Below are positions 1 through 4,844 of a stretch of DNA of 4,844 bases, one piece after another. The notes beneath the pieces are model-generated. The model had not been told where the DNA came from and did not search any database. It worked only from the letters and a program-made list of their open reading frames with translations. The stretch lies in IMG/VR virus record IMGVR_UViG_2602041863_000001, positions 1-4,844 of that record, one strand, 5' to 3'. How positions within the stretch are numbered: the first letter of the stretch is position 1; each line of letters opens with the position of its first letter. Origin of the DNA: a virus (lineage: Duplodnaviria; Heunggongvirae; Uroviricota; Caudoviricetes). The position numbers and the translations under genes were made by a program.

Positions 1-2454
1 AGTTCCATTCCCCACCACCGTGCCACTTGATGCACCATCCAGCCAGTCGAAATTCATACCGCCACTGTTTGGTCTCCTTAATGGAACGGTATGAGTATGT
101 GCGCCAGCACTATTTGCAGTACCAGATACATTGTGGGTATGTGCACCTGTGTTATTCGTTGATTTAGTACCGTAATCAAACGAAGATGTGGTTTTCGTAC
201 CCAAATCCGTATTGGATGCGCTGGCGCTGTGGGTGTGCGATTTAATGCCATCCTGTTCCAGAGACAATACGTCCCGACCACTGGCGGGTTTGCCCTTGAT
301 TGTCCAGCCACGCATATCCGGGATCACGCCTGACGGATAAGCGGCTGCAAGTTTCGGGTATGCAGATTTGTCAAAAGTCTGTCCCTGCATCAGGGCGTAA
401 CCAGACGGCACAGTATCTGATGGCCACGGCAGCGGAACACCTGGCGGAAACGCTTCAATATTTGCCGAGCCGTCAAATTTTACGCCGTTAATTGTCCTTG
501 CCGTTTTCAGCTTTGTTGCTGTAGCAGCATTGCCGGATAGTTCGCCTGAAAGACCACCGCTGAATGTCTGTTTCGCCGCCCATGTCTGAGCTTCGTCGAT
601 AATTGGCACACGTCTTGTCGTAATCGTGCGGCTTCCCGGATTTCCTGAAATGCGAACCATAAAAAAGCGGTAATTCGCTTTACTTACAGTGCTGCGCCAT
701 ACATGCATTGAGCGCCCCGTACCAGAATCATCACTCGGACCAACTGCGATGTTTATCAGGTTGCCATCAATGACGCCCCAGTCCATACCGTCGGGAATAT
801 TGGTCATGTTATCAAGCCGAACGGTTATCAGACTGCCCGGCACAAAATCGTAGGTCTGCCAGTCCAGGCTGGTGAGTTTTGCCACTGCGCCACCGATACC
901 CAGATTCAGGGGAAGTGAATAAGATGTGTAAACTTCCCGCCATTCGCTCCACGAGCTGCCGGTATAAACGCGCTCAAACGTGCGACCTTTAAGGGTTGCA
1001 CCTGTTCCGGCGGTTGTATAACGTTGCCATACGTTAACGCCATCAAAGCGCCTCAGCACTTCCAGAATACCGAGTACAGTCACGCCGTTTCCGTCCAGTA
1101 TTGGACCATTGGTCGCTTTACCTGTAACGCTGTAAATACCTGGTGAGGTTACATCATTCAAATCACCGTCGTAATAACGGCTTTCTGACTGGTAGCCCAC
1201 TCTTGACCACGGCTCCCATTGTGGGTTCTCTGCATCCCACGAGGCCGAAAGACAGCGAACATAAACATTTCCACGGCGGGTCGTGTAACGCTGCGTTCGC
1301 GAGTAACCACCACCTTCAAGAACTTCAAGGAGTCCCTGACCATAACTTCCTTCTTCCGGATAGTTGCGGTCAAATGAAGCGATTGAGCCACTACTGTTTC
1401 GCCATAAACCAAGATGCTCTGCGCCTCCGAGCGTGTTCAGGTCAATGGTTGTGCTCAGGGGGCGTGTTGCAGACTGAACCTGACGCCAGTAACTCCACGG
1501 ACCGTCTGAACCATTCCATGTGCCAGAAAGGTTGCGCATATAAACATTGCCTGTTCTGGTGGTGTAACGCTGCATTCCTGCAAAATTACCGCCATTGAAT
1601 ACCTCCAGTACACCGACTGCACCGTCTTCAGGGAAATTTTTAGCAGCCGTCGCGTTAGTGGATGTAGCTTTAGACCAGACGCCAAGATAAGCCTTAACGG
1701 GACCAAATGTATTCAAGTCAGCATCAAGCGGCATTTCGCCATTGTTTTTCATAAACGTCAGGCTGGTAACGCCAACATTGTCCAGAAAAGCGCCCTTATC
1801 TGGAATATCGTCACCGTTCTGGTCTTTCTGCATACGTTTTTCAGCATTGTCATAGGCTGCTTTTACTGCCTTTGGCGTTGCCGCCAGCTCTTCACTGGTG
1901 CTGTTTGTTGCGCTACTTAACTGAGTAAAACCTTTTTCTGTCAGCGTGGCGTCAGGATGGCGGCGGGATTGCTCATGCTCTGCGATTTTGTCATCGACGT
2001 AATCCTGCGTCGCCATCACTGTGCTGGCATCAATACTCAGCTCAACGGACGCTACGTTGCTGACAGTAATAACCATGCGGCAGGTCTGCGCGCGCCCGGA
2101 GCCTTCAGCGAGTTCAGGCTTATAGCTTTCCGCCATGTTAGCGACCGCAATCAGTGTTCCGGCATCGTCATACAGACCCAGCTCACGCATCCAGAAGCCG
2201 CCCACTTCTGGCGGTACAACCAGTTCAGCCACGATATAGTTTTTATTCTTGTTATCCACGCTGACTTTATTCAGAGCGTGACGCCAGACCTCATGCACCA
2301 GTTTCGTCTGACCGGCATCCGGCACCGGCAATTTGCCATTACCGTCACCCACGGCCATTGCAGACAGAGTTACTTTTTTCCCGCCGGGGACAGTGGCGGC
2401 TGCCAGCTTCGCGGCTCCGGCAGTAGTGATAGCGGTTTTAAATTTCGTGCTCAT
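1..2454 (-). CDS. phage side tail fiber protein (lambda Stf / P2 gpH type); 5' end complete, 3' end runs off the window start (818 codons in window)
   Basis: ATG at 2454-2452 on the minus strand, preceded by GTGAGAAACA and the TAA of the upstream frame. I hand-translated every codon down to position 1 and found no stop. This ORF is absent from the supplied track, apparently because it has no stop inside the window. N-terminus [63 protein letters not shown]...[18 protein letters not shown] is the conserved virion-proximal domain shared by lambda Stf, P2 gpH and Mu S. Conserved linker motif [27 protein letters not shown] at about 457-537. Tail-collar-like segment [33 protein letters not shown] at about 304-402. 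His-x-His motifs (HTH at 229-237; AHTHNV and AHTHTV within about 91-144). Confidence 0.9.
931..1608 (-). repeat. three tandem protein-level repeat units (about 90 aa spacing) inside the tail fiber shaft
   Basis: Hand translation shows three related units: [44 protein letters not shown] (about 1477-1608), [44 protein letters not shown] (about 1198-1329) and [45 protein letters not shown] (about 931-1065). Short nucleotide identities only (e.g. cagcgttacac, aatgtttat), so this is an old duplication rather than a recent one. Confidence 0.55.
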
Positions 2455-2464
2455 TGTTTCTCAC

Positions 2465-2827
2465 TTATCCGGGATAAACAGTAATAACATCACCATCACA
2501 GACCACACCGCCTGTATACAGATAGCCGGGAATGTCCTGGATAATGTTCAGGCCGATAAGGTGGCGACTTGCGGGTTTGGCATCGGCAATCAGCCGTTCC
2601 ATTTCCAGATACATTTCCTCGGTCACACCACTGTCCAGCGTGCCAACATCAACCTTGAATGTTCCGGGTTCGCCGTCGAACTCCCACCACTCAGACACGC
2701 GAATGAGGTATCCCAGCGGCTCAATGGCCCGGCGCAGTGCGCTGATGGTCCCTTTGTGTCGGTGTAACCGCGCTTCGCCTTCTGCGTCGCGGTGGTTTTT
2801 CGTGTTGCAGGCTTCCGCGTTGTCTTT
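2465..2827 (-). pseudogene. open frame without ATG or RBS immediately upstream of the tail fiber; possible 3' remnant of a baseplate gene (P2 gpI position). The track's 77-aa ORF 2465-2698 is its GTG-initiated tail
   Basis: The frame is open for 120 codons from the TAA at 2828-2830 to the TAA at 2465-2467, which lies 10 nt before the fiber ATG. Translation: KDNAEACNTKNHRDAEGEARLHRHKGTISALRRAIEPLGYLIRVSEWWEFDGEPGTFKVDVGTLDSGVTEEMYLEMERLIADAKPASRHLIGLNIIQDIPGYLYTGGVVCDGDVITVYPG. The only start in the track is GTG at 2698 with no Shine-Dalgarno upstream. The assignment rests on position (in P2 the baseplate gene I directly precedes H); I cannot verify homology from memory. Confidence 0.35.
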
Positions 2828-3564
2828 TTACTTTTGCTGCTTTCGTCCTGCGCCTGCGGTGTGCTGGCGTCTTCTGGTTCGGCTGCGGAATCGGCTTTTT
2901 TCAGGGCGCGGGAAAGGGTTGCAATCTCGCGTTTCACACCTGCGTTCGGGTTCAGGTGCATCGCTTCGCGCAGCAGCTTCAGTGATGAGGCCATGCTGTC
3001 CGCATCGCTCAGGCCACGGCGGGCAAAGGCGCACGCCTTGCATAATTTGGCGCGCACTTCGTCCGGCATATCCTGGTTGGCGACAATTTCCCAAAGTGTG
3101 TCCAGTGGTTCGATAAAGGCGGACAAATCCGCGTCGGCATCCGTCCCGGCCTGCGTCAGTACCGGGTTGCAGATTTCTTCGGTCAGTACCGTGGCAGCAG
3201 TACGGCCAAAGTTATCCGGCATGATGAGGTTGTGACGGACCACATACGCACCAATACGCAATGCCAGCGGAAGATCGCCGCAGTCAATCGCCCACACCAT
3301 CAGCGTGGCAATCACCTCATCTTGCTGCCCGCCGTCAGCCTCCAGCGTTCCTTCAATCCAGCCGGAAAAGTCCGGTAACAACTCTTTTTTGATGGCGGCT
3401 TTGGCGCTTCTGGCCTGTACGCCCTTAAGTCGGGCCTGTGCCAGACGCAGACGATACAGCACCTCTTCATGCGCGGTACGTGCGGCGTGATCCACGCCTT
3501 CATTCGCCCGGCCTGCGCGCTGCGCCATCACGTTCTGCCAGTGTTGCTGTGCAGGGGTAATCAT
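2623..3564 (-). CDS. phage terminase endonuclease / small subunit, P2 gpM family (313 codons; the last roughly 50-65 codons look like a read-through extension)
   Basis: ATG at 3564-3562 with GGAGAG 5 nt upstream. The protein MITPAQQHWQNV...KKELLP...LMVW..D.GD...AL.I..Y...............TEE...DMPDEVRAKL...AGVKREI..L...LK followed by a basic K/R/T-rich tail matches my recollection of P2 gpM (MTSPAQRH...KRELLP...DMPDEVRAKLHK...AGVKKEIERLEREL...) at roughly 35-40% identity. The ORF is longer than P2 gpM (about 247 aa as I recall), and the C-terminal GPSAHCAGPLSRWDTSFACLSGGSSTANPEHSRLMLARWTVV has an odd composition. Confidence 0.8.
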   Translation of the reverse strand: MITPAQQHWQNVMAQRAGRANEGVDHAARTAHEEVLYRLRLAQARLKGVQARSAKAAIKKELLPDFSGWIEGTLEADGGQQDEVIATLMVWAIDCGDLPLALRIGAYVVRHNLIMPDNFGRTAATVLTEEICNPVLTQAGTDADADLSAFIEPLDTLWEIVANQDMPDEVRAKLCKACAFARRGLSDADSMASSLKLLREAMHLNPNAGVKREIATLSRALKKADSAAEPEDASTPQAQDESSKSKKTTRKPATRKTTATQKAKRGYTDTKGPSAHCAGPLSRWDTSFACLSGGSSTANPEHSRLMLARWTVV

Positions 3565-3569
3565 TCTTT

Positions 3570-3575
3570 CTCTCC
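3570..3575 (-). promoter_or_regulatory. Shine-Dalgarno sequence (GGAGAG) for the gpM-like gene
   Basis: Minus-strand sequence reads GGAGAG-AAAGA-ATG, giving 5-nt spacing to the start codon at 3564. Confidence 0.5.
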
Positions 3576-3581
3576 GTTACA

Positions 3582-3600
3582 GGCGGGCATGATGCCCGCC
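3582..3600. repeat. perfect 19-bp palindrome GGCGGGCAT-G-ATGCCCGCC (GC-rich hairpin) in the capsid-fragment/terminase intergenic gap
   Basis: Read directly: 3582-3590 ggcgggcat, 3591 g, 3592-3600 atgcccgcc (exact reverse complement). It lies 10 nt after the TAA of the capsid-like frame (3610-3612) and 18 nt before the gpM-like ATG. No U-tract follows on either strand, so it is not a canonical intrinsic terminator. Confidence 0.6.
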
Positions 3601-3609
3601 GTGAGTTGA

Positions 3610-4068
3610 TTAGCTGTCGGCGAACTTCAGGCCTGTGACCATCGCGCACTTGCCATAGTCTTCAACGACATAAGCGTCATTGATGGACTGGTAGGTGGCG
3701 ATGCGGTTGTATTCCGGCTCGTCTTTCATCAGGCGACGCATTGAGCCTCTCTGCCAGTAAATTGACAGGTTGTTGAATGAGGTGATCAGCATCGTTGCAT
3801 CCGGGAAGAACGGCGCAAGGAATACATCCAGCCCACCAATGGTGCGCGATGACAGGATGAGCTGTCCGGCGAGTAATTCCGCATTGGGATTCTGGCCGCT
3901 GATGCTGTTCAGCACGGGCAGACGCAGCGAGTTAAACAGGTTGCGCCCCATAATCACCACGAGGTCGTCTGCTTCCTTGTGCCATTCATCCAGCAGGGAT
4001 GAGCGCGCGTCCTGTATCCGGTTTGCGTACAATTTCAAATCCCTGCGGTGCAATGATGCTGCCGTCAA
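3610..4068 (-). pseudogene. C-terminal fragment (about 150 codons) of a P2-family major capsid protein (gpN-like); N-terminal roughly 200 codons absent
   Basis: Translation ...DEWHKEADDLVVIMGRNLFNSLRLPVLNSISGQNPNAELLAGQLILSSRTIGGLDVFLAPFFPDATMLITSFNNLSIYWQRGSMRRLMKDEPEYNRIATYQSINDAYVVEDYGKCAMVTGLKFADS aligns with the C-terminal third of P2 gpN as I recall it (...PWYQEDPDLVVIVGRQLL...YFPADAMLITKLENLSIYY...RR...NIDYVVEDYAAGCLVEKIKVGDFS). The frame is closed by a TAA at 4087-4089 just upstream; the only start in the track is TTG at 4068; the preceding gene overlaps it out of frame. Confidence 0.6.
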
Positions 4069-4844
4069 CGTACAGGCTGCCGCCCCTTAACAGGTGCTGC
4101 ATCTGCTGTTCACCGATATGCAGGCCGAGAGATTCGGCAGATTCCCGCCATTCTTTAGCGAGTAATTCGTGGTTATCAGGCAAAGGCCGCTGCTGTTTGC
4201 GGCTCTGTGTCCAGCTCTGCATTTCATCACTGCTGTTTTTTGCCTGTTTGTCACGCAGCGAACGCATCAGCGCCCGGCGTTCGTGCCGTTTCAGTGAGCG
4301 CATCCAGTCATCCACATCAACGCCGTCAGGAAGCTGCGGCCACAGTGCTGGCCGTTCTTCCGGCTGTTCTGTCCCGTTGTTGTCCGTTTCCTGTACACGG
4401 GGACAGTTATTGCCACGGGTCCAAGGGGCGGCAGGGCCGCCCTGAAGGTCAAAACCATTTTCGTGGGCGTTGTCTTCCGGTTCTGGTTTACGTCTTACCA
4501 GCTTCCAGTTATCCGGATGCGTGCACACACGGGAGGATTCCCCGATGAGTGGTGACCAGATCCCGTAAATCTGTACGCTCTGTTCGCCGTAATCGTTCAG
4601 CTCATCTGCGAGGTCGTAGGCGGTGCGAATCAGGTAGTCCTTGCGTGGAACAAGCACGCCACCCTGTTTTTCAATGTAGGTGGCAAAACACCCGGCATCG
4701 GCGGCAGCGAGTACCGCATCCATTGCATCATCTTTCAGCCGTTGCGGGCCTTCCGGATTGCGTGCCATCTGGCTGGCAAGGCGGCGCAGTTCACGCCACA
4801 CCTGACGGGAGGGGATGCCAAAGAACTGGAACTGACGGACCCGG
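3986..4844 (-). CDS. hypothetical protein, 5'-partial (open to the window end); charged, Pro/Glu/Arg/Gln-rich, function unknown
   Basis: The frame is open from the window edge to the TAA at 3986-3988 (286 codons: RVRQFQFFGIPSRQVWRELRRLASQMARNPEGPQRLKDDAMDAVLAAADAGCFATYIEKQGGVLVPRKDYLIRTAYDLADELNDYGEQ...DDWMRSLKRHERRALMRSLRDKQAKNSSDEMQSWTQSRKQQRPLPDNHELLAKEWRESAESLGLHIGEQQMQHLL...). The track start at 4801 is a GTG; the real start is upstream of the window. The overlapping plus-strand ORFs are Cys/Ser/Arg-rich antisense artefacts, which supports minus-strand coding. The last about 30 codons overlap the capsid-like frame and are probably out-of-frame read-through. Confidence 0.45.
   Translation of the reverse strand, partial: RVRQFQFFGIPSRQVWRELRRLASQMARNPEGPQRLKDDAMDAVLAAADAGCFATYIEKQGGVLVPRKDYLIRTAYDLADELNDYGEQSVQIYGIWSPLIGESSRVCTHPDNWKLVRRKPEPEDNAHENGFDLQGGPAAPWTRGNNCPRVQETDNNGTEQPEERPALWPQLPDGVDVDDWMRSLKRHERRALMRSLRDKQAKNSSDEMQSWTQSRKQQRPLPDNHELLAKEWRESAESLGLHIGEQQMQHLLRGGSLYVDGSIIAPQGFEIVRKPDTGRALIPAG

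Follow-up and report, generated by a model that had tools for sequence, protein, structure and literature searches.

The stretch of DNA analysed here (4,844 bp at its full length, referred to below as the window) was found to carry the 3′ part of a P2-family capsid gene in a reading frame which is overlapped by an upstream ORF. A preliminary description had offered two readings of this arrangement, namely a deletion junction that left a pseudogene or a fragment that was kept for a purpose, and had regarded a programmed fusion of the two frames as unlikely. The question raised by the locus is which of these readings applies. Comparison with related prophages indicates that the truncated capsid gene is very probably a deletion scar, that is, a non-functional pseudogene remnant in a decaying P88-like (P2-family) prophage of an ETEC lineage. 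The kind of feature is already known, being ordinary prophage decay.

Source and Gene Order of the Window

The window is 100% identical, in reverse complement, to the entire contig KI544480.1 (4,844 bp) of assembly GCA_000497015.1, the proteins of which (ESS97783.1 and ESS97784.1) are named by NCBI as those of Escherichia coli CE549. Strain CE549 is an LT+/STh+, CS2/CS3/CS21 ETEC of ST4 from Beijing, with a draft genome obtained from 101-bp Illumina reads at 300x (PMC4415261). All long ORFs of the window are on the minus strand, in the order (from position 4844 down) gpA′, capsid remnant N′, gpM, a remnant of tail protein I and the start of the tail fibre gene H (Table 1). The prophage locus of E. 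coli O6:H16 strain 2014EL-1346-6 (L001) was used as the parental-type reference, and the corresponding locus of strain FORC_031 is referred to as L002. The segment of L001 which matches the tail fibre gene (13563–16016) sits inside a CDS labeled “phage tail-collar fiber domain-containing protein.”

The ends of the contig fall inside the tail fibre gene (position 1) and inside gpA (position 4844), the probable cause being repeats common to other P2-like prophages; among E. coli genomes with a match to the window, the median number of matching places is 2 and the maximum 13. Because the contig ends inside the prophage, its chromosomal site in CE549 is taken from relatives. In both complete genomes (2014EL-1346-6 and FORC_031) the prophage adjoins tRNA-Leu/Cys/Gly-pgsA, and the same site is presumed for CE549.

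TABLE 1. Features located in the 4,844-bp window (position 1 is its first letter).
Feature	Position	Strand	Evidence or remark
gpA′ (replication endonuclease 3′ part, to codon 816/940)	4017..4844	-	99.9% identity to L001 5106–5936; off contig end
J1 deletion junction, 3-bp microhomology TAC	4014..4016	-	Three-way alignment and overlapping BLAST pieces
gpA′ foreign tail GRALIPAG (8 codons) and TGA 3988–3986	3986..4013	-	Capsid DNA, wrong frame
Capsid remnant N′ (codons 217–350 and TAA 3612–3610)	3610..4016	-	PF05125 match; P88 gpN identity
Frame B upstream extension, gpA DNA out of frame	4017..4089	-	Bounded by SNP-made TAA 4089–4087
N-M intergenic hairpin, 8-bp G+C stem, 3-nt loop	3582..3600	-	Same hairpin and predicted fold in intact P88
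gpM small terminase subunit, 266/266 codons, stop lost	2767..3564	-	PF05944, E = 1.6e-36
J2 deletion junction and 47-codon gpM read-through tail, stop 2625–2623	2623..2766	-	2-bp microhomology at 2765–2766
Tail protein I remnant (~codons 76–175 of 175)	2465..2766	-	PF09684 positions 95–139 of 139
Tail fibre gene H, 5′ 2.45 kb, off contig end	1..2454	-	100% identity to L001 13563–16016

A Capsid Gene Fragment in the Second of Two Frames

Two minus-strand frames are found at the capsid remnant. No stop interrupts frame A between the contig end (4844) and a TGA at 3988–3986, which confirms that the upstream ORF runs into capsid DNA and stops at 3986, and frame B extends from TAA 4089–4087 to TAA 3612–3610. 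Relative to frame A, frame B is +1 (mRNA phases 2 and 0), so that a +1 shift would indeed be required to fuse the two.

Frame B matches profile positions 201–324 of 327 of PF05125 (Phage_cap_P2) with an E-value of 2.6e-42 and 145.5 bits (cut-off 27), a match far beyond chance. The closest capsid protein is gpN of phage P88 (Xuanwuvirus, Peduoviridae), which has 350 residues; window 4014–3613 codes for its residues 217–350 (134 residues, 38%) and is followed by the same N-M hairpin and gpM as in P88. The remnant and P88 gpN are 97.8% identical in nucleotides; 6 of the differences are synonymous and 3 nonsynonymous, and there are 0 indels. To L001 the remnant is 100% identical. The reduction of the capsid gene to its C-terminal third and the capsid origin of the fragment, both claimed earlier, were thus borne out by the P88 alignment and the profile match. 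A full-length capsid (~327 profile positions, 350 aa) is not covered by the remnant, which on sequence grounds is a fragment derived from a member of the P2 capsid family and not an intact member. Structures have been solved for P2 gpN (PDB 7jw1) and for a P2-family capsid (7oz4).

Compared with P88, residues 1–216, the native start and the upstream scaffold/protease gene gpO with its upstream intergenic region are absent, and the 5′ flank of the remnant consists of out-of-frame gpA DNA. With gpA DNA preceding it, the remnant has neither its own start codon nor the normal head-gene context (Q, P / O, N, M, L): O, P, and Q are missing from the contig and L is deleted downstream.

The beginning of capsid homology, given as about 4040 in the preliminary description, has to be corrected, as the capsid DNA starts at 4016 and positions 4017–4089 are gpA DNA read out of frame. 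The statement that frame B has no ATG holds upstream of the capsid homology but not within it, where five in-frame ATGs are found (3951, 3792, 3741, 3729, and 3642). TTG or GTG codons occur in this frame at 4068, 4053, 4038, 4032, 3960, 3957, and 3915. The GenBank product (ESS97784.1, 116 aa) starts at GTG 3960, and other gene calls give 140 aa from a start at TTG 4032; a frame B product of 4032–3613 would include peptides such as LPVLNSISGQNPNAELLAGQLILSSR. The frame-B stop at 4087–4089 is present as described, but it results from a SNP peculiar to the CE549 contig. At window position 4087 the minus strand has an A in this contig only and a C in 7/7 other carriers of the junction and in two parental-type genomes. 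The change is synonymous in gpA (AGG vs. CGG, Arg) and makes a TAA in frame B, where TAC is found elsewhere.

Identity of the Upstream ORF

Over window 4014–4844 the sequence agrees at 99.9% of positions with an internal part of the gene (gpA) for a 940-aa “replication endonuclease” in 2014EL-1346-6 and FORC_031. The truncated gpA′ is complete on the metagenome contig L004, where its product has 824 aa (816 + 8). PF05840 (Phage_GPA) was identified at residues 179–503 of this product (E = 1.3e-129) and also in the 940-aa parent, and gpA′ shares 31% identity with the A protein of P2 over 687 residues. Being cut after codon 816 of 940, gpA lacks its C-terminal 124 residues, and the end of gpA′ reads Thr816, GRALIPAG, stop.

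The nick site of the P2 ori is located at 29892, inside gene A at codon 620, and aligns to gpA residues ~675–690, corresponding to window ~4395–4440. As the breakpoint is downstream of this position, gpA′ seems to have kept the ori-equivalent region; a deletion which removed the replication origin together with the gpA C-terminus was considered and rejected on the same ground. The truncated nuclease gene and the presumptive ori are both still present in the prophage.

The gpA/N Deletion Junction

By BLAST, window 1–4016 corresponds to L001 12001–16016 (100% identity) and window 4014–4844 to L001 5106–5936 (99.9% identity), the two pieces overlapping at window 4014–4016. A three-way alignment of the window with L001 gpA and the L001 capsid fragment gave a sharp switch at a TAC which is common to both parents (gpA codon 816 and capsid codons 216/217). 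The breakpoint, designated J1, was in this way mapped at 4014–4016 against both P88 gpN and L001. Since both flanks match L001 collinearly, the window represents the 2014EL-1346-6 prophage minus 6,067 bp exactly.

According to RefSeq, this 6,067-bp interval begins with the end of gpA (124 codons) and stretches to codon 118 of a 253-aa capsid fragment; between these are genes for ParM, a partition protein, a ClpX zinc-finger protein, a hypothetical protein, the portal protein and, in truncated form, the large terminase. As the missing interval consists of ordinary P2-family genes (cf. the gene order of P88), the longer form is regarded as ancestral and the window as derived, with the immediate ancestor of the window presumed from this sister strain. 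In L001 the ParM/partition-like genes and the ClpX zinc-finger gene are situated after gpA (6389–8464), and they are deleted in the window.

One 6,067-bp deletion joined gpA codon 816 to codon 217 of a capsid gene N already truncated at its 5′ end, the probable mechanism being illegitimate recombination between the two copies of the 3-bp TAC. The capsid frame is left as a +1-offset remnant of 134 codons, deprived of its native start codon and presumably of most of the capsid fold; gpO and everything else upstream of capsid codon 113 had been lost already in the parental-type prophage. As the two genes are joined out of frame, gpA reads GRALIPAG and then stops at 3986–3988. Of the two readings first offered, the deletion junction leaving a pseudogene is the one that agrees with these results, as gpA and gpN are unrelated genes, 6 kb apart in the parental-type prophage, which meet at TAC. 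The two parental sequences, the breakpoint, the extent and gene content of the deletion, the relation of the frames and the recurrence of the junction were observed directly; the recombination mechanism, together with the lack of productive expression and of function of the remnant, is what we infer.

Occurrence of the Junction in Other Assemblies

The 37-mer of the junction (GTACGCAAACCGGATACAGGACGCGCGCTCATCCCTG) was found as an exact match in eight contigs, namely that of CE549, one of the isolate GCA_029359405.1 and those of six ENA metagenome assemblies, with contig names of both SPAdes and MEGAHIT style. Some carriers extend beyond both ends of the window (L004, 9,044 bp; L005, 8,398 bp). 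On L004 the early region continues uninterrupted into the 824-aa gpA′, and on L005 the tail fibre gene is followed by genes for a tail fibre assembly protein, an acetyltransferase, gpU and the tape measure, as in the complete genomes. The J1 junction was present in none of 5,426 complete E. coli genomes. An exact search of one-genome-per-species GTDB contigs gave no match either, which is expected and uninformative.

Among the carriers, the number of substitutions in window 1–4016 is 0, which indicates that the deletion is recent and has been clonally inherited. J1 may therefore serve as a clean clonal marker for a CS2/CS3/CS21 ETEC sublineage (CE549 being ST4), visible also in metagenome assemblies. 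The metagenome contigs L004 and L011 have the exact junction with 30–44 differences, all of which are on the gpA side (equivalents of window 4221–4841). Such a distribution points either to recombination with further P2-like gpA genes or to consensus assembly from mixed strains.

A Second Junction Downstream of gpM

The gpM gene is 97.5% identical to that of P88 up to two bases into the stop codon. At this point a second junction (J2) changes the stop from TAA to TAC, and 47 codons are read into out-of-frame DNA of tail protein I. The resulting fusion product of 313 aa is present in databases as a “terminase” (ESS97783.1 and ETS26354.1). In L001 the corresponding RefSeq labels are “gpM … missing C-terminus” and “phage tail protein I … missing N-terminus.” The tail protein I remnant is 100% identical to the intact gene of FORC_031 from L002 15413 onward. 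All genes between M and I of an intact P2-family genome are gone at J2, and in P88 these include head completion, lysis, tail and baseplate genes. Like this 313-aa “terminase,” the “major capsid proteins” of 116 and 140 aa called on the contig owe their existence to deletion junctions, and all of them should carry a pseudogene label.

The N-M hairpin is located between the capsid stop and the ribosome-binding site of gpM. It has a perfect stem and is conserved in intact P88, and it is therefore an inherited intergenic element, which may have a role in mRNA stability or attenuation.

Expression of the Remnant and Alternative Explanations

No sigma-70-like promoter was found on either strand in a scan of positions 3400–4400, and no well-spaced Shine-Dalgarno sequence was seen before an in-frame ATG of frame B when the sequence was read by eye. 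The best candidate for a Shine-Dalgarno sequence is AGGGA, 7 nt upstream of TTG 4032. Ribosomes may start at a low level at TTG 4032, GTG 3960, or ATG 3951, or may re-initiate once they have passed the gpA′ stop. Across its 134 codons the frame of the remnant is open, with no stops or indels, which is to be expected since the deletion is recent. Tests of selection of the dN/dS type were rejected as uninformative for the remnant, there being 0 substitutions since the deletion. The differences from P88 (6 synonymous, 3 nonsynonymous) go back to the time when the gene was functional and do not reflect selection after the deletion. In a capsid protein of the HK97 fold, residues 217–350 alone would be without the N-arm, E-loop and spine helix.

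A junction of this appearance could in principle come from chimeric assembly of short reads or from an indel error that splits one gene, and a short 4.8-kb contig from a draft of 101-bp Illumina reads (PMC4415261), containing a P2-like prophage of a type that is repeated in E. coli genomes, might be thought open to such an artefact. However, the identical 37-nt junction is found in seven other contigs from different projects and with different assembler naming styles, some of which (L004 and L005) reach well past both contig ends. As frames A and B belong to different genes, a single capsid ORF is also beyond restoration by any indel, so that the indel error envisaged at the outset does not account for the arrangement. 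The same junction in eight independent assemblies excludes an artefact for practical purposes, making it extremely improbable. Nearer still to nil is the probability of a programmed +1 ribosomal frameshift in the 31-nt overlap (4016–3986) by which gpA′ would be fused to the capsid fragment. Frame B is +1 of frame A and both are open across 4016–3989, and the two overlapping frames offset by +1 resemble those of genes with programmed +1 shifts such as prfB. Unlike prfB, the overlap has no shift-prone codon or stimulatory element, was made by a recent deletion between unrelated genes and is conserved in no relative; no relative has such a fusion, and the resulting protein would be a replication nuclease with an incomplete capsid fold attached. 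Direct reading of the overlap mRNA (ACA GGA CGC GCG CUC AUC CCU GCU GGA UGA) revealed no known +1 shift site (neither the CUU-UGA-C type nor CCC-N before the stop). The earlier view that a programmed fusion is unlikely is thus shared here, given the lack of a shift motif, the recent origin by deletion and the occurrence of the arrangement in 0/5,426 complete E. coli genomes.

A C-terminal capsid fragment might instead be retained as useful, as a dominant-negative piece or decoy against superinfecting P2-like phages or by modulating a capsid-sensing defence, and features in keeping with this are the frame that is intact across 134 codons, the 116- or 140-aa product predicted by gene callers and the persistence of the junction in at least eight assemblies, gut metagenomes included. 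This explanation is nevertheless considered very unlikely. There is zero divergence since the event, so that the persistence of the junction is attributed to clonal descent rather than selection, and the junction is absent from the 5,426 complete genomes. The breakpoint is an arbitrary one within the capsid protein, with a microhomology of only 3 bp, and neighboring genes are randomly truncated likewise. Neither a promoter-like site nor a Shine-Dalgarno sequence at suitable spacing from an in-frame ATG was seen for the fragment, the residues of which would not include the N-arm, E-loop and spine helix. The proposal of a fragment kept for a purpose consequently found no support in the expression signals or in the capsid side of the junction, which has 0 substitutions. 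It is highly improbable that the 134-residue remnant, if translated, would act as a dominant-negative subunit or decoy which poisons P2/P88-like capsid assembly; if true, the ETEC clone would have an immunity to superinfecting P2/P88-like phages encoded by a prophage remnant. Read as a deletion scar, the locus implies no new biology unless the remnant proves to be expressed, and its value lies mostly in annotation and in the clonal marker.

Progressive Decay in Related Prophages

Cryptic and defective prophages of enterobacteria decay by successive deletions. The prophage described here is like these: several genes are independently truncated, there are fusions out of frame, the junctions show short microhomologies, and head and lysis genes are gone. 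It differs only in the breakpoints. It has tail fibre, I′, M and N′ sequences identical to those of the parental-type O6:H16 genomes 2014EL-1346-6 and B2C, with the same M/I′ junction. Relative to 2014EL-1346-6, another 6,067 bp are gone from the window, beginning in the 3′ end of gpA and ending at capsid codon 216. An earlier P′/N′ junction had already cut the capsid gene of 2014EL-1346-6 at ~codon 113, with loss of gpO and of all that lay between this codon and the terminase gene.

The early region and tail fibre are the same in the FORC_031 prophage, which instead possesses an O′/J′ junction and an intact gene I. At L002 13321–15194 a truncated terminase is present together with a gpO stub of 58 codons joined to what remains of baseplate J, gene I being intact. 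FORC_031 thus represents an alternative state of decay, and therefore independent deletions from a common ancestor are indicated. Sister strains of the same prophage accordingly show the junctions P′/N′, M/I′, and O′/J′. As read from J1, J2 and these other deletion states, the pattern is one of progressive decay, and the sister strains provide a tidy small case of stepwise prophage decay.

In another, unrelated E. coli P2-like prophage (L013 5481–6534), the capsid gene is split into ORFs of 172 and 177 aa, and the large terminase gene is interrupted by an IS with transposase genes. Among the other fragments of the 90% protein cluster to which the remnant belongs, the 177-aa one (P0005) is the most widespread. 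The possibility that C-terminal capsid fragments are a recurrent and possibly selected module was considered and rejected, as P0005 is the 3′ half of a split capsid gene and there is no common architecture. In view of J2, the P′/N′ and O′/J′ junctions and the 172/177 split, truncated capsid ORFs are regarded as routine by-products of prophage degradation.

A serine acetyltransferase gene was found after the tail fibre assembly gene in L001 (16801–17346) and is also present on L005. It is a possible lysogenic-conversion cargo gene.
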